Virus record (IMG/VR): IMGVR_UViG_3300042305_002533
Location: 66,679 to 130,678 of that record
Source: a virus
Direction: 5' to 3' (one strand)
Length of the DNA: 64,000 bases
The stretch's first letter is position 1. The number at the start of each line of letters is the position of its first letter. The notes under the pieces are model-generated. The model did no database searches. It worked only from the letters and a program-made list of their open reading frames with translations, and was not told where the DNA came from. Shown one piece after another: positions 580-52,539 of the stretch. Both the position numbers and the translations under genes were made by a program.

Positions 580-2527
580 GGTCCTCCTTCAGTACGTTGA
601 GATACGCGGTGTTTGCCACCGGCTTGGCTACTTCAGCACTGTACTTACAGCCTTTGCGGAAAGGCCGAATCTCGTCGCGGGCGCAGTCATTCATACGCTC
701 ACAAGACGCGCATGAAATCCGCTCCAGCATGGTGTACGCCACGTTATCCTTAAACGCGAGCGTTCTCGCCAAAAAGCCGTCCAGAGCCTGGGGGTGCGTG
801 GACAGCAAGCGGTAAACAACCATGTTGCGCGTCTGCCCTGGGCGGTTATTGCGCTCAAGCGACTGCTTGTAGTGCGTCAGGTTCCAGGTCAGCGCATAAT
901 AAATCATGTAATTTGCGGCCGTGAGCGTAACGCCAACGCCGGAGCTTACCTGTCCGATGTACACTCGGCAGATTGGGTCAGTTTGAAAGCGGCGGCTTAG
1001 CTCTTCAATCCGGCTGGTCGTTGATCCGTCTACGCGAACGTATTCATAACCTGCGTCTGAAACGGCCGTCTCGATGTCATTGAGCTCCTCAAGGTACGTC
1101 GCCCAGACGATGACCTTGTTCGCGTCGTCATCAGACAGCACATTGCCCAAGAGCTCTTTGAACGTCGCAAGCTTCGGGTTGGAAAGTCGTTTTATGGTCG
1201 TAGGAGGTTTTTCTTTGTAAATGTGACACCGCTCCGTGTACGGGCGCACCCCAGTTTTAACGCAGCCCTGCACGTGCTCGCAGCCGTCACAGACGAGCGG
1301 GTCGGCGCCCTCAATGACGAAGCCTGAAACTAACTGCAAGAGCTTATTGACAAGGGCACCGCCGTGCGGGGTAGAAACCCCGCGCCCGCGTAAAGCGTTG
1401 GACTCCGCGTACGCAGCAAAATCTTTGAGCCGCGCAATGCTGGCGTCATACTCCCGCGCTTGCGCCGAGGACAGGTCGAAGGGCACGTCAATGAACGTAA
1501 CGGGCGGGAGGTCAATACACTCCTTCTTTTTCATGCGCGTCGCGATGCCTTCGACGCGCGCGTTCAGTTCATCCAGGTCGCGGTAGCCGTAGACCTGATG
1601 CTTATTGAACTTGGAATACACAAAGTGCTTTTGTTGATACGCGTACCAGGGCATGGGCATAAGCGCCGGCGAAAGAAAGCGCATCTGTGCATAGAGCTTG
1701 CCCGGATGATCAGCCGCTGTTCCCGAGAGCAAGTAGCGGCGGCACGCCTTGGCTGATAGCGTCAGCGCCGCCTGCGTTTGGGAGCTCTCATAGTTCCCGA
1801 TGGAGTGAGACTCGTCAGAGACAATCACCTGGTAGTCCAGGTCTTTCAGGCGCTTGGGGTGTTTATTTTTTGGGTCGAACTCAAGCCGCGCGCGGGCGTA
1901 GGAGAGCACAACGACGTCGGCGGTCTGGGCCGCCTCGTAGCTTTTGTCCGTACCGTCCCAGATAACTGCGCGCAAAGCGCCCTGTGTGCAGCGGCGGACT
2001 TCGTTAACCCACGTAGGCAGCACTACCGGAGGCGCCATCACCAACATGCGCTTGAGCTCGGGATTTTCACGGCGTGAAAGCCGGAAGCCGTCGATCATCG
2101 TACGCGTTTTGCCGGTGCCCATCTCCCAGAGAAAGAACGAACGCCACCACGCGGCGATGCGGCGGATGCCCAGTCTCTGGTGACGGTAAGGCTCAAACCC
2201 CTTGGGGAATTCAAAATCTTCGGGTAACTCGACCTCTTCGTTCTGGGCGTACGCCGACTTGGCGGCCCCCCAGACGTTGTCGGTCGCGCGCAAGTCATTT
2301 ACGAAAGAAAGCGCAGAGGCCGTCCACTCGAGGTCAGGCGCTAAAACTTTCAGATCGTGCGCTACCGAAAGCCCGAAAGGATAGTATGCTGGAAAGAGCC
2401 AGTCGGCTCCTGACTGCACGGCGCCGGTTACACGCCGCCAGGGATCAGGAGACACGCTCGTCGGCGTGATGCGCCAAACGGGCGTAAGATTTAGATGAAG
2501 GCCACTAACTTTCACGCTGGGTGCCAT
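554..2527 (-). CDS. SNF2/SF2-family helicase-ATPase
   Basis: Motif I EMGTGKT, motif II DESH, LLSGT, RVDGST, GVGVTLTAA, QSLERNNRPGQ; start uncertain (ATG 2527 or GTG 2551). Confidence 0.9.
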   Translation of the reverse strand: MAPSVKVSGLHLNLTPVWRITPTSVSPDPWRRVTGAVQSGADWLFPAYYPFGLSVAHDLKVLAPDLEWTASALSFVNDLRATDNVWGAAKSAYAQNEEVELPEDFEFPKGFEPYRHQRLGIRRIAAWWRSFFLWEMGTGKTRTMIDGFRLSRRENPELKRMLVMAPPVVLPTWVNEVRRCTQGALRAVIWDGTDKSYEAAQTADVVVLSYARARLEFDPKNKHPKRLKDLDYQVIVSDESHSIGNYESSQTQAALTLSAKACRRYLLSGTAADHPGKLYAQMRFLSPALMPMPWYAYQQKHFVYSKFNKHQVYGYRDLDELNARVEGIATRMKKKECIDLPPVTFIDVPFDLSSAQAREYDASIARLKDFAAYAESNALRGRGVSTPHGGALVNKLLQLVSGFVIEGADPLVCDGCEHVQGCVKTGVRPYTERCHIYKEKPPTTIKRLSNPKLATFKELLGNVLSDDDANKVIVWATYLEELNDIETAVSDAGYEYVRVDGSTTSRIEELSRRFQTDPICRVYIGQVSSGVGVTLTAANYMIYYALTWNLTHYKQSLERNNRPGQTRNMVVYRLLSTHPQALDGFLARTLAFKDNVAYTMLERISCASCERMNDCARDEIRPFRKGCKYSAEVAKPVANTAYLNVLKEDHENNTDAR

Positions 2528-4241
2528 GAGTTCTTCTCCCTCCGTTGACACGTCAAACCTCGCCGATCCAGTCGCACTGAACGGCGCAAACCACCCGAAC
2601 CCGGCGTTTGATTACCTCACGGGGTTCGTACCAAGAAAGCTCAAGGACCTTTTCAAGTGGGCCGAATACCTCGCGTTCAACTCGGCGCACATCTACGGCG
2701 TCGTAAGAAAGTTCGGGGAGTACCCGATTACGTCGTTCGTCTATGACACGACGTCGCCGGACGAAAAGCAGCGGCATCAAGACCTGTTTGAAAAAAAGAC
2801 GCGGCTCAAGGGGTTTCTAACGCAGGTCTCGTTTGATAAGTGGATTTACGGCAACGCGTTCGTGAGCGTCTTTGAGCCTATCAAGCGCTGGCTCCGTTGC
2901 ACCAAGTGCCGCACAAAAGAAGACGTAAAAGTCGCGGATTACAAGTACGTCGACACTTCAACGGCGTTCAAACTGAAGTGCCGGAACTGCGGCTTTGAAG
3001 GCGTGGCCGAGGTCGAGGATGAGAAGCTGATCGACCCGTCGAAGATCAACCTGATCCGATGGGACCCGAAGCTCATCGACATTGACCACAACCCCGTAAC
3101 CGGACAGAGCGTCTACTACTACACGATTCCGCGAACGCTCGTGCAGCAGGTCAAAGAGGGCAATAAGCATCTGATCGGCACCATGCCGATGGAGATGCTC
3201 AAAGCCATGAAGGCCAAGAAGACCTTCAAATTTGCCGACGGTCAGATTTTTCACCTGAAAGTTCCAGGACCGGCGGGCGTGGAGTCGCAGTGGGGCTTCC
3301 CCCCGATCACCAGCGCCATCAAGCTCTTTTTGTTCGCCGCGATCCTTCGGCGCGCGAACGAGGCCATCGCGCTTGAGCACATCACGCCGTTTCGCGTAAT
3401 TCACCCGCAAACCGCGTCAGGCAACGGCGATCCGCTTCTACAGCTCAATCTCGAAGAGTGGCGGCGAGAGCTGGAGAAAAATTACAAGCAATTCCGCAAA
3501 GACCCTCTGCGTATGCAGTTTTCACCCGTGCCCATCGGCGTCCAAAACGTCGGCGGAGACGGCCGCGCAATGCTGACGCTCGGCGAGCTACAGGAAGCGG
3601 AGAAGAACATTGTCCTGTCCATGGGCGTGCCCATGGAGTTCCTGGCGGGCGGACTTGGGCAGATGCGCGGCGAGGTTACGCTGCGCATGTTGGAAAACCA
3701 GCTGCAAACGCACATCGAGGACCTGAACGGGCTGATCCAGTGGGTCGAAGGAAAGTGCGCACGCTTCTTGGGCTGGGCTTCAATCCCGATGCGCCTCGCG
3801 GAGTTCAAGCTGCTTGACGACGTTGAGAACAAGCAGATTTACTTCCAGCTCTGGCAGCAGGGTAAGATCAGCGATACAAAGATCGGTGAACTCTTCGGCA
3901 TCGACTGGGAGCACGAGCGCAAGCAGAAGATGGAAGATGTCTTGAGCGAAATGAAATCGCAGATGCAGCTTGAAGCTGCGCAGAAGAAGCTGCAGAACGC
4001 GCTCTCGCAACAGGCGGCAAACAAAGCACAGATGTCTCAAAACCCGGCGCAGTACGACCAGCAGGCAATTATCGCGCAGGCCGATCAGATCGCCCAAGAG
4101 TTCGCCCAAATGGACATCGGCACGCGCCGATCGCGCATGGACGCACTCAAGAACGAGGACCTCATCATGGCCTCGGTGGTGCGCGAGCGGCTTGAGCAGA
4201 TGCAGCAAGACCAGGCAGCAGCACAGCGGGCACAGGGATGA
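2526..4241 (+). CDS. phage portal protein with Zn-ribbon insertion
   Basis: 571 aa; YGNAFV, IFHLK..WGFPPI and MGVPMEFL resemble portal segments; CTKC..CRNC insert; coiled-coil C-terminus; context of head genes. Confidence 0.7.
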   Translation: MSSSPSVDTSNLADPVALNGANHPNPAFDYLTGFVPRKLKDLFKWAEYLAFNSAHIYGVVRKFGEYPITSFVYDTTSPDEKQRHQDLFEKKTRLKGFLTQVSFDKWIYGNAFVSVFEPIKRWLRCTKCRTKEDVKVADYKYVDTSTAFKLKCRNCGFEGVAEVEDEKLIDPSKINLIRWDPKLIDIDHNPVTGQSVYYYTIPRTLVQQVKEGNKHLIGTMPMEMLKAMKAKKTFKFADGQIFHLKVPGPAGVESQWGFPPITSAIKLFLFAAILRRANEAIALEHITPFRVIHPQTASGNGDPLLQLNLEEWRRELEKNYKQFRKDPLRMQFSPVPIGVQNVGGDGRAMLTLGELQEAEKNIVLSMGVPMEFLAGGLGQMRGEVTLRMLENQLQTHIEDLNGLIQWVEGKCARFLGWASIPMRLAEFKLLDDVENKQIYFQLWQQGKISDTKIGELFGIDWEHERKQKMEDVLSEMKSQMQLEAAQKKLQNALSQQAANKAQMSQNPAQYDQQAIIAQADQIAQEFAQMDIGTRRSRMDALKNEDLIMASVVRERLEQMQQDQAAAQRAQG

Positions 4242-4988: not shown

Positions 4989-7900
4989 ATGACTCAGCTG
5001 ACGCCCGTACTCACCGACGCCGAAACGCTTCGCGGGAAGATTCACGAGAAGGTCACGGGCGCGCTTACCAACGTGTTCCCGATGGACCTCAAAGGGCGCA
5101 CGCTTGAGGTGAAGGACATCAAAGTCCATCACCGGGACTACTCGTCCGACGAGCAGAAGAAAGCCCTGCTGAGCGGCGACTCCCTGCAGACGCCGGTGAA
5201 GGGGACGTTGGTGCTCAAGGGCGCCGATGGGCGTGTGATCGACGAGGCGAAAAACTTTACCCTCGTCCACATCCCGTACATGACGCCACGGCACACCGTG
5301 ATCGCGGACGGCAACGAGTATCAGTTCGCAAATCAGATTCGCCGTAAGCCCGGCGTGTACACGCAGCGCGCCGAAAACGGAGAGCTCAAGACGATCTTCA
5401 ACACGGGTCGGGGCGATAACTTCAATCTCAGCTTCAACGAAGCCAAGGGCACGTTCTCGCTACAGTACGGAACGAGCAACATTCCGCTCTACGCAACCTT
5501 ACGGGGCTTGGGCGTAACGCACGACGAGATCTCCAAGCATCTCGGAGAAGGCGTCGCCAAGGCCAATCAAGTCGCGCACGAAAAGCACATTGATACGGCG
5601 ATCTCGAAGCTCTACCAGAAGCTCGAACACCCGGCCGTTTACGACCCGAAACTCCCGCACGTCGCCAAAGCCGAAGCGATCAAAAAGAAGTACAGCATCG
5701 CGTCGCTTGACCCGGACGTGACCGAGCACACGCTGGGGCAAGCGCACGACCGCGTAACCCCGACCGCGCTTCTTCACGCCGCGAAAAAGATGCTCGCCGT
5801 GCACAACGGCAAAATCCCGGTCGACGATACCGACTCGCTGACCTTCAAGACCTTCCACGCCGTCGATGACTTCCTGGCCGAGCGCATTCGTCTGACGGCG
5901 CGCACCTGGACGCCCAAAGCCAAGATGGCGTTCAGCGGCAAGAACAACATTCGTGAGGCGCTACGCCCCGCGCCCTTCTCGGATTCGATCCGCAAGTTCG
6001 TGACGACGTCGTCTTTGACGGCCGTGCCCAGCGGAATCAACCCGCTGGAGCTCATGGATCACGCCGTGAAAGTCACGTCGCTCGGAGAGGGCGGGATCAG
6101 CTCTGACCGTGCGATTCCTCTTGACGCCCGCATGACGCACGCGACGCACTTCGGGGCGCTTGATCCAATACGCACGCCTGAGTGTTTAACCGGCGACGCC
6201 GAAGTCTTTACCGCAACGGGCTGGAAGCGCGCTGACGCCCTTACAGAATCGGACGCCCTCGCTTGCCGGATCGACGGTCGCCTTGAGTTTCATAAACCCG
6301 AACGGCTGATTGCCGCGCACTATTCGGGCCCACTTCACGGCGTGAACACAGGGAAACTTGAGTACCTGGTCACTCCAAACCACCGCGTTTGGTGCGCTCC
6401 CGTAGACGCCGTGTACCCCCTTGATCAACCCCACGGAACTGGTTGGCGGTTTAGTCGCGCTGATGAAATTCACGCAAAACCTCGCGTATTTGATACTGGG
6501 CACGGCGCATTTATTGGAGCAGGGCCGGACACATTTCAACTGCCTGAAGTCGACGGCGCGCATAATGTGCGGAACGCCGGGCCTATCCCTATGCCGGATT
6601 GGGCAGCGTTCATGGGCTGGTACCTTTCCGAGGGCTCGATTGGTCGGCACGAAGGGCGCCTGACGCACGTCCTTATTTCCCAAGACCGCACGGCTAATCC
6701 CGACTGTTGTGATGCTATCGAAGCCCTACTTTCTAGGCTGCCGTTTGGCTGGAGGTATGACGCCGCTAGCCGGGCGTTCGCCATTAGCGGAAAACAGCTT
6801 GCGAGTTACTTAGAGCCTTTTGGTTTTTCCCAGGATAAGTACATTCCCGAGTCCTTCTTCAATACCTCTATTGAAGCCCGGGAAAATTTGCTTGAAGCCT
6901 TACTGTTGGGCGACGGGCGAATCAACAGCGTTCGGGCTACCGGCAAAAATTACAAACAGCAAGTGTTCTGCACTACGAGTGCCCGTCTTGCAGAAGGAGT
7001 TGAACGGTTAGCCATCTCTCTAGGAAAATCGCCTAGGACTCGTCGCTACTCAGATAAGCGAGAAGAGCGATATCTTGATACCTATGAAGTTCGCCTGCTC
7101 CGCGACCGGTATCGGCAAGCGGTTCCTAGAAAAGGCCACTACTACGTAAGGCTCCACGACGGGCTGGTGTATTGCGCCACCGTTCCGGGTGGGCTGATGT
7201 ACATCCGCTATGGCGCTGGGATTGGACACTGGTCCGGTAACTCAGGCCATGCCGGTGTAGACATCCGCGCAACCATCGCCGCGCACCGAGATGACCGGGG
7301 AAACTTCTACACGGCCATGAAGGACGTGAAGACCGGGAAACAGGTCTTCGTGCGAGCCGGCGACCTCGTCAAAAACGTCGTGGCGTTCCCCGGGCAAAAC
7401 CTCAAGGGGGGCGTCAAAGCGTTCGTCAACGGGAAGATTGAAGAAGTGCCGGGCTCACGGGTGACGCACGAGATGCTGCACCTGTCGCACCAGTACTCAC
7501 CGGCGACGAGCCTCATCCCGATGATTCACAACATCCAGGGCAACCGCGCGATCATGGGTTCCAAGATGGGAACTCAGGCGCTACCCCTGCTTGATCGGGA
7601 GACGCCCTACGTCCAGGTAAAGAGCCATCTGCCGGGCGAGGTGTCGTTTGAAAAGGTCTACGGGCATCTGACCGTGCCGACATCGCCGGTGCACGGGACG
7701 GTGGAGAAGATCCAGGACGGGTACATTTATATCCGGCCGCACGGGGAGAAGAAGGCCGAGGACCGCCCCGTCCTTGAGCAGCGGAAGCTCGGGCCGCACA
7801 CGTTCAACCTGGAGATGATGCGCCACCAGTTTGAAGACGCCCCTGGCAGGCTCACGACCCGGTCGGGCAACTGGGACTACGGACATCTCCCCGGCTACAC

Positions 7901-10900
7901 GGGGCCTGATGGCGACTCCCTCGACTTCTTCGTCGGCGACCACCCCGACGGGCACATCTTCTCGTTCGACAAGCAGCACAACGCCGACGGCAAGGGCTGG
8001 AAGACCACGGACACAAAGTTTGTGGTGGGCGTGACGCCCGAGCAGAAGGCGGAGTTCCGTCGCCGTCAGGCCGTGTACAACTCGGGGCCCGCACCCATGC
8101 GGCACGCGAACATCCGAGAGTTCAAGGACTGGAATCACCTTCAGCAGCACATCAACGAGCACTTCAAGAACGAGAAGGTCGCCGCTGCCAAGGACGACGG
8201 CCTCATCAAAGTCCCCTACGAAACGAACTTTCCGTTCCCCTCGAAGACCTACCTGCATCACGACATTCAGGTAAAGCCGGGACAGACGGTTCAGCAGGGG
8301 CAGCGCCTTGGCGACTCGAACTTCACGCGCAACGGCACGCTCGCGCTCGGGAAGAACCTGCTCGTCGGATACATGGCCTATCACGGCTTGAACTCCAACG
8401 ACGCCGTCGTCATCAGCGAAAGCTGCTCCAAAAAGCTCACCAGCGAGCACATGTACCGCGAGATCTACCCACTCTCGTCACAAATCGAGCTCTCGCGCGA
8501 CAAGCACAAATCCTATTACGGCACCAAGTTCACGCCGCAGCAGTACGCGAAGCTTGATGCTTCCGGCGTGATCAAGCCCGGTACGCGTGTTGACCCAAAA
8601 GACCCGCTCGTACTCGGGCTGACGCGCGCTCAGATTCAAGGGCAAGACCTTCTCCTTGGGCGCATCTCGAAGTCGCTGACCAAGCCCTACAAAGACGTCG
8701 TGCTTCAATGGGAGCACGGCACGCCCGGCGTGGTCGTTGAAGTCCTCCGAAGCTCGGGGCAGATCGCGATTCTGATCAAGACCCAGGAGCAGATGCAAGT
8801 CGGCGACAAGCTGGCCGGGCGTTACGGGAACAAGGGCGTCGTCGCGAAGATCGTCGCTGATCACGAAATGATTAAGGACGAGAAAGGCCGCCCGCTCGAT
8901 CTCATCCTGACGTCCGCTGGCGTCGTAAGCCGCATCAATCCCGCACAGGTCATCGAAACCGCCGTCGGCAAAGTCGTCGAGAAGACGGGCAAGCCCATTC
9001 TCTACGACAACCAGGAGCACAAGGACGCCGTTCAGTGGGCCAAGGGGCTTTTGAAAGAGCACGGCATCAAAGACAAAGAGCACGTCTTTGACCCTGTGAC
9101 CAAACGGACGATCGTCGGGCCTGACGGCAAGGGCGTACTCGTCGGGCGGCAGTTCATCTACAAGCTCTTCAAGAGTACGGACACAAACTTCTCAGGCCAC
9201 GGCGTCGGCCCGTACGACGTAAACGAACAGCCCCTGAAGACTGGCGGGGACGAGAGCGCCAAGGGCATCGGCAAGATGGAGTTCGACGCCATCGTGGCCC
9301 ACAACGCCCGTAACTTTCTGCAGGAGGCCGCGTCAATCAAAAGCCAGAAGAACGATGAGTTCTGGCGTGCGATCCAGCTCGGGATGCCGCTGCCGACCCC
9401 AAAGCCTTCGTTCGCCTTCAACAAGTTCACCGCCATGCTTGAAGGCGCGGGGATCAAAGTCGACAAGCGGGGGTCGAAGTTCAAGCTCTTGCCGCTGACC
9501 GACAAAGACATCACACAGCGCAGCAAAGGCGCGATCACCGAAAAGGAAACGCTGATCGCCAAGAACCTGAAGCCGATTAAGGACGGACTCTTTGACCCGC
9601 TGAAGACAGGCGGGCCTCAAGGCACGCTGTACTCTCACATCGACCTCCATGAGCCGATCCCGAACCCGGTATTCACCGAGCCGGTGCGGCGCCTTCTCGG
9701 GCTGTCCACAAAAGACTTCGAGCAGCGGCTACACGACCATGGCGGCGCGTGGTTTCACAAAGAGCTTCAAAAGATCGACGTTGACACGAAACTCAACGAG
9801 CTCACCAAGGCGATGAACAAAGCGGCGGGCCCTGAGCTCGACAACCTCGTCAAGCAGGTGAAGTACCTCCGCGCCCTGAAGAGCGAAAACCTGAAGCCCC
9901 ACGAAGCTTACATCCTGTCCAAGGTGCCGGTGATTCCGCCGGTCTTTCGCCCGGTGCTGCCCGAAATGCGCGACCCGTCCAAGCTGATGGTTGCGGACGC
10001 CAACAAGCTTTACGGGCACCTTCTCGACACGAACAATACGCTCAAGACCACTGCCCTTGAGAGCGATCGCGGCAAGCACCGCGCCCTTGTCTTTAAGTCT
10101 GTCGGGGCGGTCTTCGGCATGAATGACCCCGAGGACGAGAAGCTGCAGAAGCAGGAAGTGAAAGGCTTCCTACAGAATATTGCAGGCGTGGGCTCCCCGA
10201 AGGGCGGCTTCTTTCAGCGCAGGCTCATGCGCCGAACGCAAGACGTATCAGGACGTGGAACGGCCGTGCCGGACGGAAACCTCGGCATGGATGAAGTGGG
10301 CATTCCGGAGCAGATGCTCTGGCAGATGCTCGACAAACTCATCGTGGCGCGCCTGGTCCGGCAGGGATACTCAGCCCTGCAGGCGCGCGAACTTGTCGAC
10401 AAAAAAGCGCCCGTCGCCCGCGAAGCTATGCTGGCTGAAAGTCGTGAGCGTCCCGTACTGATCAACCGCGCGCCGACGCTTCACCGCTGGTCGGTTGTGG
10501 CCGCGTATCCAAAGCCGGTGCAGGGCAAGACGATCCGCGTCAACCCCTTCGTCGAGAAGGGCATGAACCTCGACTACGACGGCGACACCCTTCAGGTGCA
10601 CGCGCCCGTTCAACCGGGGGCCGTCGAAGACGCAAAGAAGATGACGCTCAGCCAGATGCTCCTGGCGGACCAACAGCGTAACAAGCTCATGGCCTTCCCA
10701 CAGCACGAGGCCATCATCGGCTTTACGCTGGCGTCAAAGGCCACACCTACGGGACCGGCGCACCGATTCAAGACGCGCGACGAAGCCATGGCCGCGTGGC
10801 GTTCCGGCAAACTCAAGCTCACGGATGGCGTCATCATCGAGCACGAAAAGAAAGCGGGAGCCGACGATTTTAGCGAGCCTTTAGACGGCACGCCGATGAC

Positions 10901-10967
10901 GTCTGACGACGCGCTATGCTATTACCCAGCGGAGAGTGTGACGGGCTATGAACCGCAAGCTAGCTGA
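4989..10967 (+). CDS. rpoBC: phage DNA-directed RNA polymerase, fused beta plus beta' N-terminal half, with intein and pyrophosphatase-like insertion
   Basis: Beta motifs NQIRRKPG, TPE, NRAIMGSKMGTQALPL, GDKLAGRYGNKGVV; beta' motifs PVIPPVFRP, NRAPTLH and catalytic NLDYDGD (NADFDGD equivalent). Confidence 0.93.
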   Translation: MTQLTPVLTDAETLRGKIHEKVTGALTNVFPMDLKGRTLEVKDIKVHHRDYSSDEQKKALLSGDSLQTPVKGTLVLKGADGRVIDEAKNFTLVHIPYMTPRHTVIADGNEYQFANQIRRKPGVYTQRAENGELKTIFNTGRGDNFNLSFNEAKGTFSLQYGTSNIPLYATLRGLGVTHDEISKHLGEGVAKANQVAHEKHIDTAISKLYQKLEHPAVYDPKLPHVAKAEAIKKKYSIASLDPDVTEHTLGQAHDRVTPTALLHAAKKMLAVHNGKIPVDDTDSLTFKTFHAVDDFLAERIRLTARTWTPKAKMAFSGKNNIREALRPAPFSDSIRKFVTTSSLTAVPSGINPLELMDHAVKVTSLGEGGISSDRAIPLDARMTHATHFGALDPIRTPECLTGDAEVFTATGWKRADALTESDALACRIDGRLEFHKPERLIAAHYSGPLHGVNTGKLEYLVTPNHRVWCAPVDAVYPLDQPHGTGWRFSRADEIHAKPRVFDTGHGAFIGAGPDTFQLPEVDGAHNVRNAGPIPMPDWAAFMGWYLSEGSIGRHEGRLTHVLISQDRTANPDCCDAIEALLSRLPFGWRYDAASRAFAISGKQLASYLEPFGFSQDKYIPESFFNTSIEARENLLEALLLGDGRINSVRATGKNYKQQVFCTTSARLAEGVERLAISLGKSPRTRRYSDKREERYLDTYEVRLLRDRYRQAVPRKGHYYVRLHDGLVYCATVPGGLMYIRYGAGIGHWSGNSGHAGVDIRATIAAHRDDRGNFYTAMKDVKTGKQVFVRAGDLVKNVVAFPGQNLKGGVKAFVNGKIEEVPGSRVTHEMLHLSHQYSPATSLIPMIHNIQGNRAIMGSKMGTQALPLLDRETPYVQVKSHLPGEVSFEKVYGHLTVPTSPVHGTVEKIQDGYIYIRPHGEKKAEDRPVLEQRKLGPHTFNLEMMRHQFEDAPGRLTTRSGNWDYGHLPGYTGPDGDSLDFFVGDHPDGHIFSFDKQHNADGKGWKTTDTKFVVGVTPEQKAEFRRRQAVYNSGPAPMRHANIREFKDWNHLQQHINEHFKNEKVAAAKDDGLIKVPYETNFPFPSKTYLHHDIQVKPGQTVQQGQRLGDSNFTRNGTLALGKNLLVGYMAYHGLNSNDAVVISESCSKKLTSEHMYREIYPLSSQIELSRDKHKSYYGTKFTPQQYAKLDASGVIKPGTRVDPKDPLVLGLTRAQIQGQDLLLGRISKSLTKPYKDVVLQWEHGTPGVVVEVLRSSGQIAILIKTQEQMQVGDKLAGRYGNKGVVAKIVADHEMIKDEKGRPLDLILTSAGVVSRINPAQVIETAVGKVVEKTGKPILYDNQEHKDAVQWAKGLLKEHGIKDKEHVFDPVTKRTIVGPDGKGVLVGRQFIYKLFKSTDTNFSGHGVGPYDVNEQPLKTGGDESAKGIGKMEFDAIVAHNARNFLQEAASIKSQKNDEFWRAIQLGMPLPTPKPSFAFNKFTAMLEGAGIKVDKRGSKFKLLPLTDKDITQRSKGAITEKETLIAKNLKPIKDGLFDPLKTGGPQGTLYSHIDLHEPIPNPVFTEPVRRLLGLSTKDFEQRLHDHGGAWFHKELQKIDVDTKLNELTKAMNKAAGPELDNLVKQVKYLRALKSENLKPHEAYILSKVPVIPPVFRPVLPEMRDPSKLMVADANKLYGHLLDTNNTLKTTALESDRGKHRALVFKSVGAVFGMNDPEDEKLQKQEVKGFLQNIAGVGSPKGGFFQRRLMRRTQDVSGRGTAVPDGNLGMDEVGIPEQMLWQMLDKLIVARLVRQGYSALQARELVDKKAPVAREAMLAESRERPVLINRAPTLHRWSVVAAYPKPVQGKTIRVNPFVEKGMNLDYDGDTLQVHAPVQPGAVEDAKKMTLSQMLLADQQRNKLMAFPQHEAIIGFTLASKATPTGPAHRFKTRDEAMAAWRSGKLKLTDGVIIEHEKKAGADDFSEPLDGTPMTSDDALCYYPAESVTGYEPQAS
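6183..7241 (+). mobile_element. intein with LAGLIDADG homing endonuclease in RNAP beta
   Basis: TPE|CLTGDAEV start, VTPNH block B, FMGWYLSEG and LLEALLLGDG helices, ends VYCATV..WSGN|S; 353 aa. Confidence 0.9.
7758..8183 (+). other. inorganic pyrophosphatase-like (InPase) domain inserted in RNAP beta
   Basis: DYGHLPGYTGPDGDSLDFFVG matches the family I PPase YG..DGDPLD motif; flanked by KKA and KVA; paralogue in 51271..52539. Confidence 0.75.
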
Positions 10968-11559
10968 CATGTTGAGCGGGGGCCTGACTTCGACGTCGAT
11001 CAAGCGCCCAGGCGAGCCAATGATTCACGCCGTGAAAACGGAAGGCCCGCTCGGTAACCTGTTGAAGTCGATGGTCCCCGGGCCCTCGATGCACGTGATG
11101 CTCCGCGACATGGTGCCGTCGGCGATGAGCGGCGATGATTGCGGCTGCGACAACGTAGAAATCTTGAAGAAGCTGTCGTCCAAGAAGTACCAGCTGATCC
11201 TCGCGTACATTCATTACGGAGATCAACTACGGGCGCTCTACCGGGACGGCATCTACGAGCACTTTCAGGAGCACCTGGAAGAGGAGCGCGCCCAGCTCTA
11301 TCAGATCAACAAGAAGGTCACCGCCCTGGGGCATGACGCACCTTGTTGTCCGGGCGAAGTGCCGCCGGTGCCGCTCAACGACGCCAAGGCGATTTTTCGT
11401 GTCGCCCTGAAGATCGAAGAAGAATCGGTGCAACTCTGGTCCGATCTTTTCCGTCAAACCGACGACGACGTCGCCCTCAACGGCATGGCCCAGACGTATG
11501 CCCAGGAGTGCCAGGGGCACGCAGACGATCTGAAGCGCTATCTGCGGAGCTGTGAATGA
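10948..11559 (+). CDS. ferritin-like (bacterioferritin/Dps superfamily) protein
   Basis: EHFQEHLEEE, ALKIEEE and QECQGHADDL helices of a ferritin four-helix bundle in the C-terminal ~140 aa. Confidence 0.7.
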   Translation: MNRKLADMLSGGLTSTSIKRPGEPMIHAVKTEGPLGNLLKSMVPGPSMHVMLRDMVPSAMSGDDCGCDNVEILKKLSSKKYQLILAYIHYGDQLRALYRDGIYEHFQEHLEEERAQLYQINKKVTALGHDAPCCPGEVPPVPLNDAKAIFRVALKIEEESVQLWSDLFRQTDDDVALNGMAQTYAQECQGHADDLKRYLRSCE

Positions 11560-13222: not shown

Positions 13223-15028
13223 ATGCCTACGCCCATCTCCGTTGGTCACTTCTTGATCAACGACGTCTTGCCCGAGACCCACAAAATCACCGGGCCGGTC
13301 ACGAACAAAAACGTGCACGATCACGTCGTCGGTCTGGCCAAAGCTAACCCCGCCGAGTACGTGAACGTCATCACGGCGCTTAAGCGGCGAGGCGACGAAA
13401 TTGCCACACTTGAAGGTGTGAGCGTCGGCCTTGACGACATCGCACCCGATTACAAAGCACGCGACGCGATCTTGAAACCCGCGATTGCGAAGATTGAAAA
13501 AGCCAAGACCGAGAGCGAGCGGGAAAAGCTCGTCATCGAGGCGCAGAACGCGCTACTGGAGTACACAAAAAAGCACCCCGGCTCGATGACGCATATGGCA
13601 CTTTCCGGAGCGCGCGGAAACCCCGCACAGCTCATGAAGATCGTCGCGACGCCGCTGGCGGCGGTGCACCCGAAGCACGGTATCGAGCGGATACCCATCA
13701 AGCGGAGCTACTCCGAAGGGTTGACCGCCGCCGAGTACTGGTCGACCGTGCCTGAGGTTCGCGCCAATAACGTCGCTACCGTGGTGTCGGTCTCCGAGCC
13801 CGGAGAAGTCGCCAAAGTCCTCGTCAACAACATGATCGGGACGACTGTCACGCGGCCGGATTGCGGAACAAAAAACGGCGTGCACATGCGCCTCGACGAC
13901 GGCCACATTCTGGACCGGTACGCACAAGCCAGTCACGGAGTAGCCCGCAACACCTTGATTACCCCCCGGCTCGTACAGGAGCTTAAAAGCAAAAACATCC
14001 AAGAGCTCCTCGTGCGCTCACCGATGACGTGCGCCGCTTCGCATGGCGTCTGCCAGCATTGCCAAGGGCACAGCGAAAAGGGGCAGCTTCACGGGATTGG
14101 CGCTCCGGTGGGCGTGCGTGCCGCACAGGCCCTGGCGGAGCCTTTGACACAGATGGCGCTCTCCTCGAAGCACGCCGTACTAACAATCAAAGAAAAAAAG
14201 TTGGAGCCTACGGGCCTCAAAGGTTTCCGCCAATACCTTGAAATTCCAAAAGCGTTCAAATACGAAGCGGTACTCGCCCCGCAAGCCGGGCTTGTAACAA
14301 AAATTGAGAAGGCGCCGCAAGGCGGGCACTATGTTGTCGTTGGTGCTGAAAAGCTTTACGTCCGCCCAGAACTCAGCGTTACCGCGCACGTCGGGATGCA
14401 CGTAGAGCACGGAGACGCTTTGACCAACGGTGTGCCTAATCCGCAAAAAATCGTCGCCGCAAAAGGCCTCGGGGCGGGCCGCGCATATTACGTCGGGGCC
14501 ATTCACCGGGTCTACCAAGGCGAAGGCATAAACTTGGATAGGCGTCACCTGGAGCTCTTGGCCAAGAGCGAGATGAACCACGTCCGCCTTCTAGACGCCG
14601 ACCCAGAACACCCCGAGTTTCTCAAAGGCGACGTCATTAACTACAACGCCTTCCGAGAAGCGTACTCCAAAGACGTCACACACATGCCGCTCTCCGAAGC
14701 TATAGGAAAGCGGCTGGGGCAAGAGATACTACACCACACGGTCGGAACCCCAATAACGCCGGCTCTTGTAAACGAGCTGAAAAGCAAAGGCGTTCGCGAG
14801 GTCCTTGTAAACAAGCGGCTCCCTCCGGTAGAATTTGTGATGAAACCATTCACCATGAACCCGCTACACGAAAGTGATTGGATGGCGCGGCTGGCGCACC
14901 GGTACCTCAAGGGGTCCATTCAGCAGGCGGCGCAATTTGGAGAAACGTCCGACATTCATGGCGCCCACCCAATTCCGGCTTACGCTTACGGAGCCGAACT
15001 TCGCCACGGCCCGTCGGGCGGATACTGA
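13223..15028 (+). CDS. rpoC: phage RNA polymerase beta' C-terminal half
   Basis: SGARG, SYSEGLTAAEYW, DCGT, VRSPMTC..GVCQHCQG Zn site, trigger helix GVRAAQALAEPLTQ, RRHLELL. Confidence 0.92.
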   Translation: MPTPISVGHFLINDVLPETHKITGPVTNKNVHDHVVGLAKANPAEYVNVITALKRRGDEIATLEGVSVGLDDIAPDYKARDAILKPAIAKIEKAKTESEREKLVIEAQNALLEYTKKHPGSMTHMALSGARGNPAQLMKIVATPLAAVHPKHGIERIPIKRSYSEGLTAAEYWSTVPEVRANNVATVVSVSEPGEVAKVLVNNMIGTTVTRPDCGTKNGVHMRLDDGHILDRYAQASHGVARNTLITPRLVQELKSKNIQELLVRSPMTCAASHGVCQHCQGHSEKGQLHGIGAPVGVRAAQALAEPLTQMALSSKHAVLTIKEKKLEPTGLKGFRQYLEIPKAFKYEAVLAPQAGLVTKIEKAPQGGHYVVVGAEKLYVRPELSVTAHVGMHVEHGDALTNGVPNPQKIVAAKGLGAGRAYYVGAIHRVYQGEGINLDRRHLELLAKSEMNHVRLLDADPEHPEFLKGDVINYNAFREAYSKDVTHMPLSEAIGKRLGQEILHHTVGTPITPALVNELKSKGVREVLVNKRLPPVEFVMKPFTMNPLHESDWMARLAHRYLKGSIQQAAQFGETSDIHGAHPIPAYAYGAELRHGPSGGY

Positions 15029-18123: not shown

Positions 18124-18145
18124 AATCGCTTACAGCTAGCGCCTC

Positions 18146-18188
18146 CCAAACGCCTGCGGCTATACTAGCCGCAGGCGTTTGGCTTTTT
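18146..18188 (+). terminator. intrinsic terminator, 17-bp perfect stem, TATACT at the apex
   Basis: ccaaacgcctgcggcta-tac-tagccgcaggcgtttgg followed by cttttt. Confidence 0.75.
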
Positions 18189-18201
18189 GAGGAGCAGCAC
18201 A

Positions 18202-20691: not shown

Positions 20692-20702
20692 CGTGAACGT
20701 TT

Positions 20703-21413: not shown

Positions 21414-21433
21414 CCTAGAATTGGATTAACGCC

Positions 21434-23826: not shown

Positions 23827-23827
23827 G

Positions 23828-25802: not shown

Positions 25803-28800
25803 ATGCGCAAGATCTTTGAGCTCGAAGACCGGTTTGCGACAGGCGAGCCGACGATTCAACTCGTCATGTTGCCTGACGGGCGTGGAGGGCGCGTTTTTGA
25901 AAAACGGGCGTTCGACTCTGCGGCCAACTCTCCGGCCTACGAGTATCTGAAGACCGTCACACCAAAAGACGGGCACTCCATTGTTCTCGTGAACGCCCTT
26001 GGGGCCTACGAGGCGTACGACGACAATAGGAATGGCGACTCTTTTCCGGATCGCCCGATTAACATCGGCGCTCCCGTAAAGTGCGGGCACAAAAGCTGCC
26101 AGGCTGCGGCTTGGATTGCCGAAGACGAAGTGCTCTCCAAGCACTACAAGACCTTCGAGAAGTTTGGCGGAATCTACAAGCACCACGTCAACAAGGACCC
26201 GTCAAAATCCTTGGGCAAAGTGCTCAAAGCGGTCTGGAACCCCAAGATGCAGCGCGTTGAGCTGCTACTTGAAATCGTCAACGACCGCGACCAGGATTTG
26301 GCCAAAAAAATTGCCGACGGCGAATATCCCGCCGTATCGATGGGCTGCTTAAGCGCGGGCACGCCAATCACTATGGCTGACGGGCGGCGCGTCGCGGTCG
26401 AGAACATCGAAGTCGGACACCAGGTTCGGACGCACCTCGGAAATAATCACCGCGTATTCGAGCTGCACCGCCGAACGTATCAAGGCGTAATACACACCAT
26501 CAAGCCCGAAGCCGCCCCCGCCCTGGTGGTGACGCACGAGCACCCTTTTCACGTCGTGAAGAAAATAGACGTGAAAAAGCGCGACGCCAAGGGCGCCTGG
26601 GTGTGGAACCCCGAGGCGGCGCCGCAAGGCGTCTGGAAGCTCGCCGAAGAGCTCGATCCTGAAGAACACTACCTGCTTCAGCCCATCAATCGGGAAGTCA
26701 CGACCCCCTCGTATGTAACCTGGGCCTTTGCGCGGCTCCTCGGGTACTACTTGGCTGAAGGAAACGTACTGCACGATAAAAGCGAAAGGCTGTGCGGGGT
26801 AGAATTCACCTGCCACGAAAAAGATGAACTACTGCTCGAACTGCCCGACCTTTGTAAAGATCTGGGGCTCCCGGAGCCGTACATAACCCCCCGAAGCAAC
26901 AGCGCGGTGGCCAGAAGCGCGCGAGTGTTTGACGCCGGCCTCGCCGAGAAATTAGCCTTACTCGCAGGCTGCGGAGCCAAAGCCAAGAGCCTTGACGCGT
27001 CGGTCATGACCTGGGCGACGACGTATCAGCGTGCGCTATTCGGCGCGTACGCCAACGGCGACGGGTGCGGGAACAAAGACGGAAGCCTACAGGTGTCGAC
27101 GGCATCGGCCGATCTTGCAACACAGTGGCTCGACCTTTTGCCCCGTCTCGACGTCCTGGCGTCACACCAGGTCTTGAGCCACAAGCCGAACGCCCTGGTA
27201 AAAATCGCGACGACGGAACACGTCGTATTTATCGGCGCTCAGTGGGCGCAGGGGCTGCGCGATGTATGCGCGAAGGTAAAGCCCCATGAGCTAAAGGCCC
27301 GAAAAGAGGCGCGTAAGATCTTCGGAGACTACGTCGTAACGCCCATTCGCAGCGTAGAGCGCGCGGCGGGAATTATGCCGGTGTATAACTTTGAGGTCGA
27401 AGAAGATAACAGCTACGTCGCCGGGGGCGTCGCCGTTCACAACTGCCACGTCAAATGGGATGTTTGCTCCATCTGCGGCCATCGAGCTCCCACGCGGAAG
27501 GACTACTGCGAACACGCGCGAAACAAGATGCGGCAGGTTCTCTCCAACGGGGAGAAGGTCTGCGTTCACAACCCGTCGCCAAAGTTTTTCGACATCAGCT
27601 TCGTTTTCCGGCCCGCAGACCCCACGGGGTTCATGCTCAAAAAAGTCGCCTCTGCTTACGAGCTCTGGGCGGGGCCGAGCGCCAAATTGGGCGAGATCGC
27701 AGACGCGTACGAGCAAAAAATTGCCGACGCTCGAAAGCTGGGGGACATTCGAAAGCAGCTGTTAGGGCAAGTGGCCGCTGTTCGACAGAGTCCAACTATT
27801 CAGAAGTATCAGGCAACGGCAAAAGAGAACGCAAAAAATCGACAGAAGACGCCTGACAAGGACATAGCAAAGCTCTCGGCCTATCCTTTTTCAGTTGTAG
27901 CTTCAACGTTTGCGGCAAAGAACGCGGCCCTGTCTACCGGAGATGTAGCCCGCATATTTCTCAAGAAAGCGGGCGTCTCCTCCCCAGACTGGTTGATCGA
28001 CCGGATCGTGGCCGTCGAACCTGTACTAGAAAGCGTGCTAGCCCGCGCGCCGGGGCTATACGAAAAATTAGGGCACCTCGTAGAGCTCTCCGACCGCCAC
28101 ATTGAGCCAGGCCTCTACCCCATCGTTGACGCTTGGATTGAAAAGACAGCCGGGATGAGCGATTTCATTCGCGACAGCGTCCTCGGCCCTAGTGATAACG
28201 CTCTGCCAGTAGGCCCCGGCGCGCTTTATCGCGCCACCGCCCCAGCTGCCACGGACGTACTCACGATCACGGACCCCAGCACGGGGCACGTCTATCAAAC
28301 GACGCGCGGCGCTGCACAAAAGCAGCATAACGCGGACATGAAGCACAAACTTTTTGGCAGCCTAGCCTTAAGTGCGCTTTACGCTACGGCCTTGCACCAC
28401 GGGCTGAAGAAAAAGCTGCCACCTGTGCTTACAGTTCCGGCGGGGATATTTCTCGGCGTGAAAACTTACGGGCTTGGGAAAAACCTATTGAGCCCGCTGA
28501 GGAACCCGGAATACATTACCGACCAGGGAATTGCTGTGCCGGGAAACACTGAGTTCGTCAAAGCTTCGGCGTTGAGCGCCCCCGCGCTGCTCGACAAAAT
28601 TGCGTTCGATATCATTGAGCGCGTCGGAGACACCCCCGACCCAATCGCGGCCCTCCACGCAAAGATCGCGGCGCACGCTCCAAGGAGTGCGATCGCCGCA
28701 TTCTTAGGGCACCCGAGCGACGATCAGGAAAAGGCGGCGGCGTTGATTGAAGGTTTGGAAAAATTCAGCGACACTGTCTCTGAGCCCGAGCTAGACTTTC

Positions 28801-28841
28801 ACGCGTTTGGGACTCGCGTAGGGTCGCTACTGCTGTCTTGA
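25803..28841 (+). CDS. prohead (capsid maturation) protease with intein and C-terminal extension
   Basis: NRNGDSF, KHH, and VSMG (candidate catalytic Ser) followed after the intein by CHVKWDVCSICG..C; DISFV..PAD; upstream of capsid genes. Confidence 0.75.
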   Translation: MRKIFELEDRFATGEPTIQLVMLPDGRGGRVFEKRAFDSAANSPAYEYLKTVTPKDGHSIVLVNALGAYEAYDDNRNGDSFPDRPINIGAPVKCGHKSCQAAAWIAEDEVLSKHYKTFEKFGGIYKHHVNKDPSKSLGKVLKAVWNPKMQRVELLLEIVNDRDQDLAKKIADGEYPAVSMGCLSAGTPITMADGRRVAVENIEVGHQVRTHLGNNHRVFELHRRTYQGVIHTIKPEAAPALVVTHEHPFHVVKKIDVKKRDAKGAWVWNPEAAPQGVWKLAEELDPEEHYLLQPINREVTTPSYVTWAFARLLGYYLAEGNVLHDKSERLCGVEFTCHEKDELLLELPDLCKDLGLPEPYITPRSNSAVARSARVFDAGLAEKLALLAGCGAKAKSLDASVMTWATTYQRALFGAYANGDGCGNKDGSLQVSTASADLATQWLDLLPRLDVLASHQVLSHKPNALVKIATTEHVVFIGAQWAQGLRDVCAKVKPHELKARKEARKIFGDYVVTPIRSVERAAGIMPVYNFEVEEDNSYVAGGVAVHNCHVKWDVCSICGHRAPTRKDYCEHARNKMRQVLSNGEKVCVHNPSPKFFDISFVFRPADPTGFMLKKVASAYELWAGPSAKLGEIADAYEQKIADARKLGDIRKQLLGQVAAVRQSPTIQKYQATAKENAKNRQKTPDKDIAKLSAYPFSVVASTFAAKNAALSTGDVARIFLKKAGVSSPDWLIDRIVAVEPVLESVLARAPGLYEKLGHLVELSDRHIEPGLYPIVDAWIEKTAGMSDFIRDSVLGPSDNALPVGPGALYRATAPAATDVLTITDPSTGHVYQTTRGAAQKQHNADMKHKLFGSLALSALYATALHHGLKKKLPPVLTVPAGIFLGVKTYGLGKNLLSPLRNPEYITDQGIAVPGNTEFVKASALSAPALLDKIAFDIIERVGDTPDPIAALHAKIAAHAPRSAIAAFLGHPSDDQEKAAALIEGLEKFSDTVSEPELDFHAFGTRVGSLLLS
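26346..27443 (+). mobile_element. intein with LAGLIDADG homing endonuclease in prohead protease
   Basis: VSMG|CLSAGT start, VTHEHPF, LLGYYLAEG, GAYANGDG, ends VYNFEVEEDNSYVAGGVAVHN|C; 366 aa. Confidence 0.93.
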
Positions 28842-30990: not shown

Positions 30991-31911
30991 ATGGGTGCAT
31001 ACGCTACAGAGACACCGCAGGTCAGCGCTCGCTTCCTCAACCAGTCGTTCCTAAACGCCATCGAGGGCGGTCGGACGAAGGAGGCCGCTGACGAGGGTAC
31101 CAACTTCATCCGCGAGATCGTACGTCAGGCGTCCGCCGTGCGTGAGATTCTCCCGCCCGTCGGCCTCCAGGACGACGAGATCGACCGCGACGAGCGGACG
31201 GATGAGCCCAAGAAGATCGTCGAGAAGGAGCCCCAGTCGGTGGCGACCTTCGTCGAGTTCCAGGGCACGCCGTCGGCGTACTGGTTCCGGGGTCCGCGCT
31301 ACGCGGTGTTCTTCGGCAAGATTCTCTCGCCGAAGGCCACGAAGTCGAAGTTCCAGCTCATGACCTACCAGAACGATATCCGCAAGATTCTTGCGGATAA
31401 CTTCGTGAAGGACATGGCGGACCAGGAGGACAAGTACTGGCGCCGTCAGTGCCTCGTTCTCGTGAACAAGAACCCGGGCGCGCAGCGCACCAACGCCCCG
31501 GCGTTCACCTCGGCCGCCTTCAAGCGGGCGTTCCAGTCGCTCCTCGACCGCCGTCGTCCCATCGGCAAGATGCTGATGACGAAGTCGCTGTACATGGAGG
31601 CGATCGACCTCCCGGCGACCACGGTCGGCAACGCGATTGCCGAGGCGCACTACCGCGAGGGTATTGAGAACGAGGAGAAGCTCTTCGGCGTGCCCGTGGT
31701 GACGACTGTCAAGTCGGACATCTACGACCCCCGTGAGGTGTGGGTGTTCTCGCCGCAGAACTTCCTCGGGAACTTCTTCCTCCTTCAGGACGCCACCCTG
31801 TTCATCAAGCAGGAGGCGGACATGATCGAGTTCTTCACGTACGAGGCGCCCGGCATCGGTATCGGCAACCGCCTGTCGATGCAGCACATCGTCTTCCCGT
31901 CGGCCACCTGA
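30991..31911 (+). CDS. major capsid protein (HK97-like fold, compact)
   Basis: Very strong codon bias; VREILPPV, DIRKIL..DMADQED, KLFGVPVV; followed by a terminator. Confidence 0.75.
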   Translation: MGAYATETPQVSARFLNQSFLNAIEGGRTKEAADEGTNFIREIVRQASAVREILPPVGLQDDEIDRDERTDEPKKIVEKEPQSVATFVEFQGTPSAYWFRGPRYAVFFGKILSPKATKSKFQLMTYQNDIRKILADNFVKDMADQEDKYWRRQCLVLVNKNPGAQRTNAPAFTSAAFKRAFQSLLDRRRPIGKMLMTKSLYMEAIDLPATTVGNAIAEAHYREGIENEEKLFGVPVVTTVKSDIYDPREVWVFSPQNFLGNFFLLQDATLFIKQEADMIEFFTYEAPGIGIGNRLSMQHIVFPSAT

Positions 31912-51270: not shown

Positions 51271-52539
51271 TCAGGCGGGCGAGATTGTCGATGCCGGCTC
51301 TGCTAGGTCTTTTTGTTTCTGCGTGGGGTTGAGCACTTCCTGCCCCGCCTGACCCGCCCGGTCGTAAAGATACTTCCCCGCGCGATACGCCCCGTAGGCG
51401 TAAGGCGTGTAGCCGATGGCTCGACCAAGGTGAGATGAAATTGGCTCCTTACTGAGGCCGGCTTGAAAGGCGGCTATGGGGTGCATGGCGGTGAGTGTTG
51501 CCATGTTTACGGCATCGGCCAGCGGCATGCTTATGTTTTCTAATCTAGACGCATGAAGCCGATCCCACAGCTGCCGTAACCGCCCGGGGCCTTCAGCTGA
51601 TTTCTGGAAGCTGTAGTTAGCGACCTTCATCGGCGCTCGATGCGCCGCTATGCTCTCCTGCAGCCGCGTAATAAACCCTGTTCGCGGTTGCTGCGCCAGA
51701 TAGCCCTCAAGCTCGTTCCAGTCCTTGAAATCTTTTCGATCTACCAGCGCCGCTCCCGGAGAGTGCGTATACTCCGGGAACCGCTTCTGGTAATCGTCCA
51801 TCTGCTCGGGCGTCAGGCCGACGAAATACTTGTAGTCGGCCAACCCCTTCTGTCCTGGCAACGTCTTGGTGAACCGCGAAATACCCCCCTTGAGGTCATC
51901 GCCGACGTAGAAGTCTGCCGAATCGCCATCGGGGCTCTTCACCCCAGGGAGATAACCGTAGTCGTATTTCGACTCAACACCGCCAACATTGAACCCCTTG
52001 GGGTACTCAATGTGGAACTCTTTGGGCCCAAACTGGCGGCGATATATCGTAGAGCGGTTCAGCGCCTGCTTCTCCTGGCCGTCCGGAGATTTCACGCCGT
52101 GAACCATTTTACCGAAACGGTCTTTGAGGTAGGGATAACTCGCCACGAGCGCAGCGGTAAGCGCCGCCCGGCCGAGCCCCTTCTTCAAAGGATCCCCAAG
52201 CTCGGACCTCAGAATCCCCATATCCAGACTGGGTTCGGCCGAGAGTACCTTTGCCGCCCTGGCGAGGTCTGGCAGGGCCGTCGAAAATCCGGCAGTGCCC
52301 GCAAGGGCTACGTGCAGCGGGTTGATCGAGGGCGGCTCCTCGGGCACCTCATCGGCCGCAATTTTGAATCGATAGCCGCTCATCTTCGGCATCGGCGGAC
52401 GCATCGAAGTCGCCGCTGACGACGGGGTGGGTACAGGCGGCATCGGCGGAGGCACGTTAGCCCCCGGAGAAGGCCCACCCATCGTCGGCATTCCCATGGG
52501 CTGCGGCATCGAGCCGCCGTTGGTCGCGTGTTTTCTCAT
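51271..52539 (-). CDS. modular KxA-delimited protein containing an InPase-like domain
   Basis: IEYPKG..YDYGYLPGVKSPDGDSADFYVG between EKQA and MKVA (about 51622-52062). Confidence 0.75.
   Translation of the reverse strand: MRKHATNGGSMPQPMGMPTMGGPSPGANVPPPMPPVPTPSSAATSMRPPMPKMSGYRFKIAADEVPEEPPSINPLHVALAGTAGFSTALPDLARAAKVLSAEPSLDMGILRSELGDPLKKGLGRAALTAALVASYPYLKDRFGKMVHGVKSPDGQEKQALNRSTIYRRQFGPKEFHIEYPKGFNVGGVESKYDYGYLPGVKSPDGDSADFYVGDDLKGGISRFTKTLPGQKGLADYKYFVGLTPEQMDDYQKRFPEYTHSPGAALVDRKDFKDWNELEGYLAQQPRTGFITRLQESIAAHRAPMKVANYSFQKSAEGPGRLRQLWDRLHASRLENISMPLADAVNMATLTAMHPIAAFQAGLSKEPISSHLGRAIGYTPYAYGAYRAGKYLYDRAGQAGQEVLNPTQKQKDLAEPASTISPA

Follow-up and report, generated by a model that had tools for sequence, protein, structure and literature searches.

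We report that the beta subunit of a multisubunit RNA polymerase (RNAP), encoded in a 64,000-nucleotide stretch of virus DNA (here called the window), holds an InPase-type domain, related to inorganic pyrophosphatases (PPases), in one of its hairpins. The window forms the last 64 kb of the 130,678-base IMG/VR record IMGVR_UViG_3300042305_002533 (CheckV completeness 76%). Alignment with gp206 of Salmonella phage Arash and protein 0261 of Vibrio phage D69 shows 150 extra residues in the 1992-amino-acid (aa) open reading frame (ORF) of this polymerase, and at the same place, between ..IYIRPHG and DGLIKVPY.., both relatives have a short beta-hairpin. We suggest, with slightly more confidence than doubt, that this hairpin serves as a cargo slot of a virion RNAP, whose precursor would be packaged and cut at K-x-A motifs by a protease similar to gp21 of phage T4, thereby splitting beta and freeing the PPase.

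The original prediction, made from the DNA letters, had placed a pyrophosphatase-like cassette at positions 7746..8190, and our alignments agree with it. This interval corresponds to aa 920-1067 of the ORF, with EKKA at aa 920-923 and EKVA at aa 1062-1065, and the beta flanks that were quoted are present at aa 899-919 (SPVHGTVEKI..YIRPHG) and aa 1070-1101 (DGLIKVPY..VKPGQTV). The predicted size of about 142 aa is obtained if putative cuts are placed after the Ala of KKA and of KVA (aa 924-1065).

The polymerase and the site of insertion

The Pfam domains of the ORF are Rpb2_2, Rpb2_3 and Rpb2_6 (1.8e-41) followed by Rpb1_1 and Rpb1_2 (2e-18), and this order indicates that the chain is beta fused to the N-terminal part of beta' (beta'-N), which ends at the NLDYDGD metal motif of beta' (aa 1860-1866). 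Among cultured phages, Arash (gp206) and the Vibrio phages D69, D181 and D148 have the closest relatives, with about 35% identity over 64-74% of the query; Arash gp206 is about 35% identical over 72% of its length. The hairpin that received the insert belongs to the hybrid motif directly preceding the beta catalytic barrel; a weak Peptidase_M23-like (hybrid motif) match lies at aa 1087-1117, and Rpb2_6 starts at aa 1105. About 60 residues occupy this place in cellular beta, compared with 216 in the 1992-aa ORF, or 66 without the insert. Iyer et al. 2021 (PMC7824862) reported an 'N-terminal SBHM' (sandwich-barrel hybrid motif) preceding the barrel in the beta subunits of phages and bacteria.

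Identity of the inserted domain

Searched alone, the 148-aa segment matches Pfam PF18823 (InPase) with 29.7 bits (E = 6.5e-7), and because this exceeds the gathering score of 26.8, chance is excluded for the domain; inside the whole ORF the match has 25.3 bits, below the gathering score. A HMMER search of 1.84 billion representative sequences recovered 101 relatives of the insert at E <= 1e-3. In an alignment of 46 InPase sequences, Y45, G46, D55, D60, G64 and K91 (E920 being residue 1) are invariant, while positions 57 and 89 are always acidic. The acidic triad of the insert (D55, D57 and D60) aligns with the same motif in mycobacterial PPases, and 17/17 RNAP-embedded InPase copies retain both this triad and [DE]-x-K. 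We take the four acidic residues of the insert to correspond to D65, D67, D70 and D102 of the E. coli PPase.

The profile of the InPase alignment matches mycobacterial PPases at E-values of 9e-6 to 1e-4. These matches came only with the profile, as a phmmer search of the insert against the PDB sequences gave 0 matches at E <= 10. A 12-residue gap in the alignment of the profile with the mycobacterial PPases falls at the place of a hairpin that InPase is said to lack; according to Iyer et al. 2017 (PMC5512222), cellular PPases have this beta-hairpin between strands 1 and 2 and InPase does not.

The predicted structure points in the same direction. The AlphaFold2 model of the insert has a predicted local distance difference test score (pLDDT) of 89.8 and a predicted template modelling score (pTM) of 0.84, and every Foldseek match shown is an inorganic pyrophosphatase (best 1qez_A, E = 3.8e-3, probability 1.00). 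Likewise, all 50 entries shown by VIA are PPases, with Z-scores of 7.1-8.1 over 114-133 aligned residues (Z = 8.1 over 125 residues for the best match). In PHROGs the insert has only a weak match to 'virion structural protein' (E = 0.0014). A PPase fold is therefore found both by profile search and by predicted structure, as had been anticipated, and an ordinary lineage-specific beta insertion is ruled out, since the segment holds an InPase domain and no repeat module. Catalytic activity of the insert is plausible, and its substrate is uncertain.

Arash gp23, named 'pyrophosphatase', was considered as a counterpart of the insert and rejected: it has no Pfam match at E <= 0.01, and tblastn with the insert missed Arash. 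We also observed that the C-terminus (residues 630-763) of PDB 9b41 chain L, the portal protein gp19 of phage Pa193, matches the InPase profile (E = 9e-23). The word pyrophosphatase is absent from the Pa193 paper that reports 9B41.

A second copy is found in the window itself. The predicted paralogue in 51271..52539 proved to be real (35% identity over 139 aa, BLASTP E = 4e-22), and its bounds are as proposed, EKQA at aa 156-159 and MKVA at aa 304-307. The BLASTP match between the two copies starts exactly at EKKA/EKQA, and the Pfam InPase score of the paralogue is 14.8 bits, below the gathering score. In homologues of this carrier (P0008-P0012), K-x-A is kept directly before the InPase module; after it we find K-V-A or K-Y-A in P0008, P0009 and P0011, K-V-K in P0010 and K-F-T-P in P0012. 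These bounds indicate that, at the level of sequence, the same bounded InPase module rides in two different carriers in the studied phage.

Distribution among related polymerases

The survey of viral contigs covered the best 80 of 115 RNAP relatives, which were sorted into gap classes by conserved anchors flanking the hairpin. As L049 lacks the upstream anchor and L075 the downstream one, 78 loci could be classified. No extra residues are present in 31 of these, 7-32 extra residues in another 31, and 134-551 in the remaining 16. The 31 loci without insert form one clade together with Arash, with 99% support in a quick tree for which the Shimodaira-Hasegawa-like approximate likelihood ratio test (SH-aLRT) is the only support measure. 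InPase was identified in 10/10 distinct large inserts tested with Pfam, seven of them above the gathering score and up to 115 bits, and each of the remaining six equals or closely resembles a tested one (4/6 matched a local hidden Markov model). Comparison of homologues had been suggested as a check, with an empty site expected to carry a single K-x-A. The outcome agreed with this expectation: the loop is missing from 31/78 loci, and 18/78 have a loop of 7-11 aa, all 18 with at least one K-x-[A/G/S].

The content of the hairpin differs even between the nearest relatives of the studied polymerase: L008 (81% identical) has a three-part insert of 551 aa, and L010 (78% identical) has 12 residues. 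The InPase state requires at least four changes along the RNAP tree. In a tree of 117 InPase domains, the RNAP-embedded copies occupy at least three places split by starred branches, one of which also holds the paralogue family while another pairs L009 with P0026, itself an RNAP. The rows P0026 and P0078, labelled 'other', are in fact RNAP-embedded and inflate a count of seven changes in this tree, hence the lower bound of three is used. From these separate places we deduce that the hairpin loop captured InPase repeatedly.

Additional domains are seen in some loops. For instance, the loops of L008 (5607-7259) and L042 (12134-13087) contain a P-loop AAA_18/AAA_33 kinase-like domain beside InPase, and that of L008 has a further domain of about 200 aa without Pfam match.

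K-x-A motifs at the insert boundaries and in the head genes

K-x-[A/S/G] is found in 24/24 boundary windows on the N-side and 24/24 on the C-side of distinct inserts that exceed 20 aa; about 10 are expected in composition-preserving shuffles, and 0/2000 shuffles reach the observed count. In inserts of several domains the motif also stands between successive domains. Short loops possess it as well. At least one copy is present in 18/18 loops of 7-11 aa, typically as E-K-T-[G/A/S]-A-A-G and twice in L028; most loops of 12-15 aa have two adjacent copies, and loops of 23-32 aa have at least two that flank an acidic peptide. In the clade without insert the motif is seen in 7/31 windows. C-terminal tails that extend beyond the common end of the polymerase begin with K-x-A in 10/10 rows having a tail, including that of the window.

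The motif is also enriched in the head genes. A block of 12 consecutive ORFs on the plus strand (15961-30383) contains 98 K-x-A against 41.8 expected (2.3-fold; reached by 0/2000 shuffles), and the other 115 ORFs of the record contain 167 against 165.0 expected. Six control patterns have observed/expected ratios of 0.72-1.25. In the capsid protein, K-[ELQ]-A lies about 30 residues from the N-terminus in 7/7 sequences, Arash included, within a stretch that is conserved; this is not diagnostic. We regard the K-x-A of the head block as a candidate maturation-protease code, of a specificity not described for the T4- or phiKZ-type proteases.

A candidate prohead protease

The candidate protease gene lies within the K-x-A-enriched block and is interrupted by an intein, while intein-free homologues are found in 5/5 related records. 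The model of such a homologue (pLDDT 80.5) matches T4 gp21 (5jbl) with Z = 11.4 and a root-mean-square deviation of 3.1 over 147/164 residues; the next best match has Z = 5.4, and herpesvirus proteases fill the following rows. In Foldseek the top three matches are 5jbl chains, with no match at E <= 0.001. Across 29 sequences there is little or no variation in a His-His pair, the Ser of AVSMG and a K-V-A that directly follows the domain. Pfam finds no match for the protease domain in the window's own N-terminal piece or in the five intein-free homologues. The family is large (1917 homologues at E <= 1e-3), and 0/120 of those listed bear a functional name.

A proposed cargo slot and its alternatives

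The polymerase is probably packaged in the virion of the studied phage, given its homology to the Arash RNAP and the synteny with the portal gene, which the RNAP gene follows both here and in Arash. In the Arash study (PMC10585845), gp206 ranks first among the proteins detected in purified virions (3516 spectra), and gp216, which corresponds to beta', has 1210. We found one beta and one beta' homologue in the whole record and one beta homologue in each of three relatives rated 100% complete; hence a single polymerase probably serves the entire infection cycle.

In our proposal, the hybrid-motif hairpin before the beta barrel would act as a cargo slot, filled here by a 142-aa InPase-type family-I PPase and in relatives by nothing, by a short acidic peptide, by an InPase of another lineage or by InPase together with a P-loop kinase-like domain. 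The polymerase precursor would go into the capsid and be delivered together with the phage DNA. Inside the prohead, the gp21-like protease would cut after the Ala of K-x-A, a position assumed by analogy with A-X-E in SPN3US and with the motifs L/I-x-E of T4 and Ala-Ser (cut between the two) of herpesvirus assemblin. Four products would result, namely beta-N (aa 1-923 minus the intein), the InPase (924-1065), beta-C with beta'-N (1066-1956) and a discarded tail of 36 aa, and beta would be left as two associated pieces. Newly made polymerase that is not packaged would keep its PPase tethered; because there is a single RNAP per genome, tethered and excised forms, the two options of the original prediction, may both exist, with the PPase at about 1:1 with the polymerase in either. 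The PPase would most likely hydrolyse the pyrophosphate (PPi) of transcription, pulling early RNA synthesis forward. That a packaged InPase may clear PPi for early transcription has been put forward in section 23 of Iyer et al. 2017 (PMC5512222). Taken in its widest form, as a polyprotein RNAP with a modular beta slot, in which a head protease of new Lys-x-Ala specificity splits beta and frees swappable helpers for co-injection while the unpackaged pool stays tethered, the proposal seems to us evenly balanced between right and wrong.

Several observations weigh against it. The fold scores of the insert are middling: Foldseek gives no match at E <= 0.001, and a VIA Z-score of about 8 lies within the range that this tool calls common. 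The studied copy departs from the InPase consensus (PKG to MRH, K30 to E and YP to GN) where the alignment places the substrate-binding region of cellular PPases, and therefore PPi may not be the substrate. Within the RNAP ORF, 12 K-x-A are observed against 12.2 expected; chance is not excluded for the two bounding motifs within this ORF alone, and their significance comes from the comparison with relatives. The boundary windows are themselves taken from related sequences, by which the shuffle test overstates independence, and A, E and K are common linker residues. As for cleavage, the identified prohead-protease cuts in SPN3US remove N-terminal propeptides and are not internal splits, apart from the self-cleavage of the protease (PMC10052503). 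Finally, the Arash study scored 116 virion proteins, and its authors raise the carry-over of abundant enzymes (PMC10585845).

Some of these points would suit a PPase that is permanently tethered and never excised, with K-x-A as the conserved flexible linker of a lineage-specific surface loop. The polymerase ORF as a whole is not enriched in the motif, many linkers are rich in K, A and E, one RNAP per genome means that an uncleaved cytoplasmic pool must exist, and the virion RNAP of coliphage N4 is packaged unprocessed according to section 8 of Iyer et al. 2017 (PMC5512222). However, each of the 18 loops of 7-11 aa still has a copy although there is no domain to be linked, the motif stands between the domains of multi-domain inserts and at the start of every C-terminal tail, and the order-specific enrichment is confined to the head block with its gp21-like protease, itself ending in K-V-A; permanent tethering thus appears rather unlikely to us. 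A little less likely again, but the main functional rival, is a nucleotide-directed role in counter-defence, where the delivered cargo would act on a nucleotide-like molecule such as an alarmone or defence signal and the polymerase would be the vehicle only. This is the first alternative given by Iyer et al. 2017 (PMC5512222), from links to NUDIX, GNAT and TmrB, and it would agree with the consensus residues missing near the substrate site, with unrelated cargo such as P-loop kinase-like domains in the slot, and with the paralogous module in a carrier that is not a polymerase. On the other hand, InPase entered the polymerase loop from at least three lineages, which points to a specific tie with the polymerase, and none of the metal-binding residues that characterise PPi hydrolysis has been lost.

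The low Pfam score inside the whole protein and the deviating N-terminal motifs could also mean that the insert is a catalytically dead structural remnant, kept for the folding, assembly or packaging of the polymerase. We consider this improbable, as the acidic triad and [DE]-x-K are retained in every embedded copy across divergent lineages and the predicted fold is confident and complete. A selfish intein-like element or an assembly artefact might be imagined since the same ORF holds a true intein elsewhere (aa 399-751), but the first residue of the insert is Glu, Hint matches and splicing motifs are absent from it, and the same architecture recurs in many independent contigs and proteins, leaving hardly any room for this explanation.

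If the cargo-slot proposal is true, it would be the first case of a cellular-type RNAP subunit that serves as an enzyme-cargo carrier, loaded and released by capsid maturation, and the published guess on PPi removal by packaged InPase would become a testable 1:1 physical link. The repeated capture of InPase, from different lineages, at one loop would argue that the first minutes of an infection are limited by the removal of PPi or by a related hydrolysis. Moreover, K-x-A and the protease would be candidates for a new maturation code in phages of about 170-200 kb, a large group that is uncultured.

Comparison with known systems

The lineage-specific insertions of bacterial RNAPs (E. coli SI1, SI2 and SI3) are likewise lineage-variable insertions in surface loops of a large subunit. 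Bacterial insertions consist of repeated beta-beta' or hybrid-motif modules and are not known to have enzyme activity or to be excised. The loop content here is instead an enzyme-type domain, and it varies among close relatives.

The InPase of phage polyvalent proteins and portal fusions (Iyer et al. 2017, PMC5512222) belongs to the same domain family without the extra hairpin, in proteins for which packaging and injection are assumed; there the domains stand end to end, whereas here InPase is nested in an RNAP beta loop and bounded by K-x-A. No metallopeptidase (MPTase) hub domain is present in the 1992-aa ORF, in which Pfam finds RNAP domains and InPase only. The ORF works like a polyvalent protein and is not a member of that group by the feature of a processing peptidase. 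Coliphage N4 also has a virion-delivered polymerase with other domains in one chain, but that RNAP is of the single-subunit T7-like type and fused to a metallopeptidase domain, unlike the one described here (Iyer et al. 2017, PMC5512222).

Among multisubunit enzymes, the Arash gp206/gp216 RNAP has the same fusion of beta with beta'-N, a separate C-terminal part of beta' and an adjoining portal gene (Arash: PMC10585845); it has a tight hairpin and no insert, C-terminal tail or intein, unlike the studied ORF. Jumbo phages of the phiKZ/SPN3US type possess a multisubunit RNAP in the head and a dedicated head protease that cuts many head proteins at a three-residue motif, as proposed here; there, separate genes encode the pieces of beta and cleavage takes place at A-X-E, in contrast to the single chain and putative internal K-x-A split of the studied polymerase (PMC10052503, PMC7824862). 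In AR9-like Bacillus phages, an HD phosphohydrolase is fused to the C-terminal region of beta (Iyer et al. 2021, PMC7824862, section 3.4.3). This is also a phosphohydrolase on beta, but one with an HD fold, in a terminal fusion with no bounding motif described, whereas InPase is inserted in a loop. InPase in packaged phage proteins, virion multisubunit RNAPs, maturation by head proteases and the HD hydrolase on AR9-like beta are thus already known; the insertion in the beta loop, its recurrent capture and exchange, and the logic of a cassette bounded by K-x-A are new. No description of InPase inside a multisubunit RNAP was found in the literature searched.

Features of the window

The positions of the insert and of the other features discussed are collected in Table 1.

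Table 1. Positions in the window of the polymerase, its insert and other features.
Feature	Position	Strand	Basis
RNAP beta and N-terminal part of beta', fusion, 1992 aa	4989..10967	+	Pfam; alignment with Arash gp206
First strand region of the hybrid-motif (SBHM-like) hairpin, SPVHGTVEKI..YIRPHG	7683..7745	+	Alignment
Inserted cassette with InPase-type domain, aa 920-1069	7746..8195	+	Alignment with Arash gp206 and D69 0261
N-side K-K-A, candidate protease site, aa 921-923	7749..7757	+	K-x-[ASG] in N-side boundary windows
PPase signature DYGHLPGYTGPDGDSLDFFVG, aa 963-983, acidic triad D-x-D-x-x-D	7875..7937	+	Alignment of 46 sequences
C-side K-V-A, candidate protease site, aa 1063-1065	8175..8183	+	K-x-[ASG] in C-side boundary windows
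Returning hairpin strand and rest of hybrid motif, DGLIKVPY..VKPGQTV, into beta catalytic barrel	8196..8291	+	Alignment
Predicted intein in RNAP, aa 399-751, after RTPE	6183..7241	+	Starts with Cys, ends with Asn, followed by Ser
K-K-A (aa 1954-1956) and 36-aa acidic C-terminal tail of RNAP	10848..10964	+	Arash-like proteins lack the tail
C-terminal part of beta', separate gene	13223..15028	+	Pfam Rpb1_5, 2.9e-15; Arash gp216, 30% identical
Paralogous carrier, 422 aa, with InPase module (aa 156-284, nt 51688-52074) between EKQA and MKVA	51271..52539	-	BLASTP
Candidate prohead protease	25803..28841	+	T4 gp21-like fold of intein-free homologues
Intein inside candidate protease gene	26346-27443	+	Directly after AVSMG motif, whose Ser is invariant
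K-V-A following protease domain	27642-27650	+	Invariant in homologues
Portal gene, upstream of RNAP	2526..4241	+	Arash gp204 portal, 32% identity, E = 1e-94
Major capsid protein	30991..31911	+	Arash gp226, 38% identity, E = 7e-60

PHROGs provided no useful names for 16/20 neighbouring ORFs. The RNAP intein (353 aa) has a homing-endonuclease-like middle. It is missing in Arash and D69 as well as in P0001, a fragment of 91% identity that reads straight through, and related inteins are present in other loci (tblastn). The acidic tail of the polymerase (10857-10964) contains a short D-[DE]-A-L-x-[YF]-[YFC]-P-x-E-like stretch that is common to the tails of related loci; following K-K-A, this tail could be a capsid-targeting or propeptide signal. 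The start of a gene for a ferritin-like protein (10948-11559, plus strand; Pfam Ferritin, 3e-11) overlaps the end of the RNAP gene. In L039, a distant relative (match at 8878-13203 and onward), beta and a complete beta' are found in one ORF.

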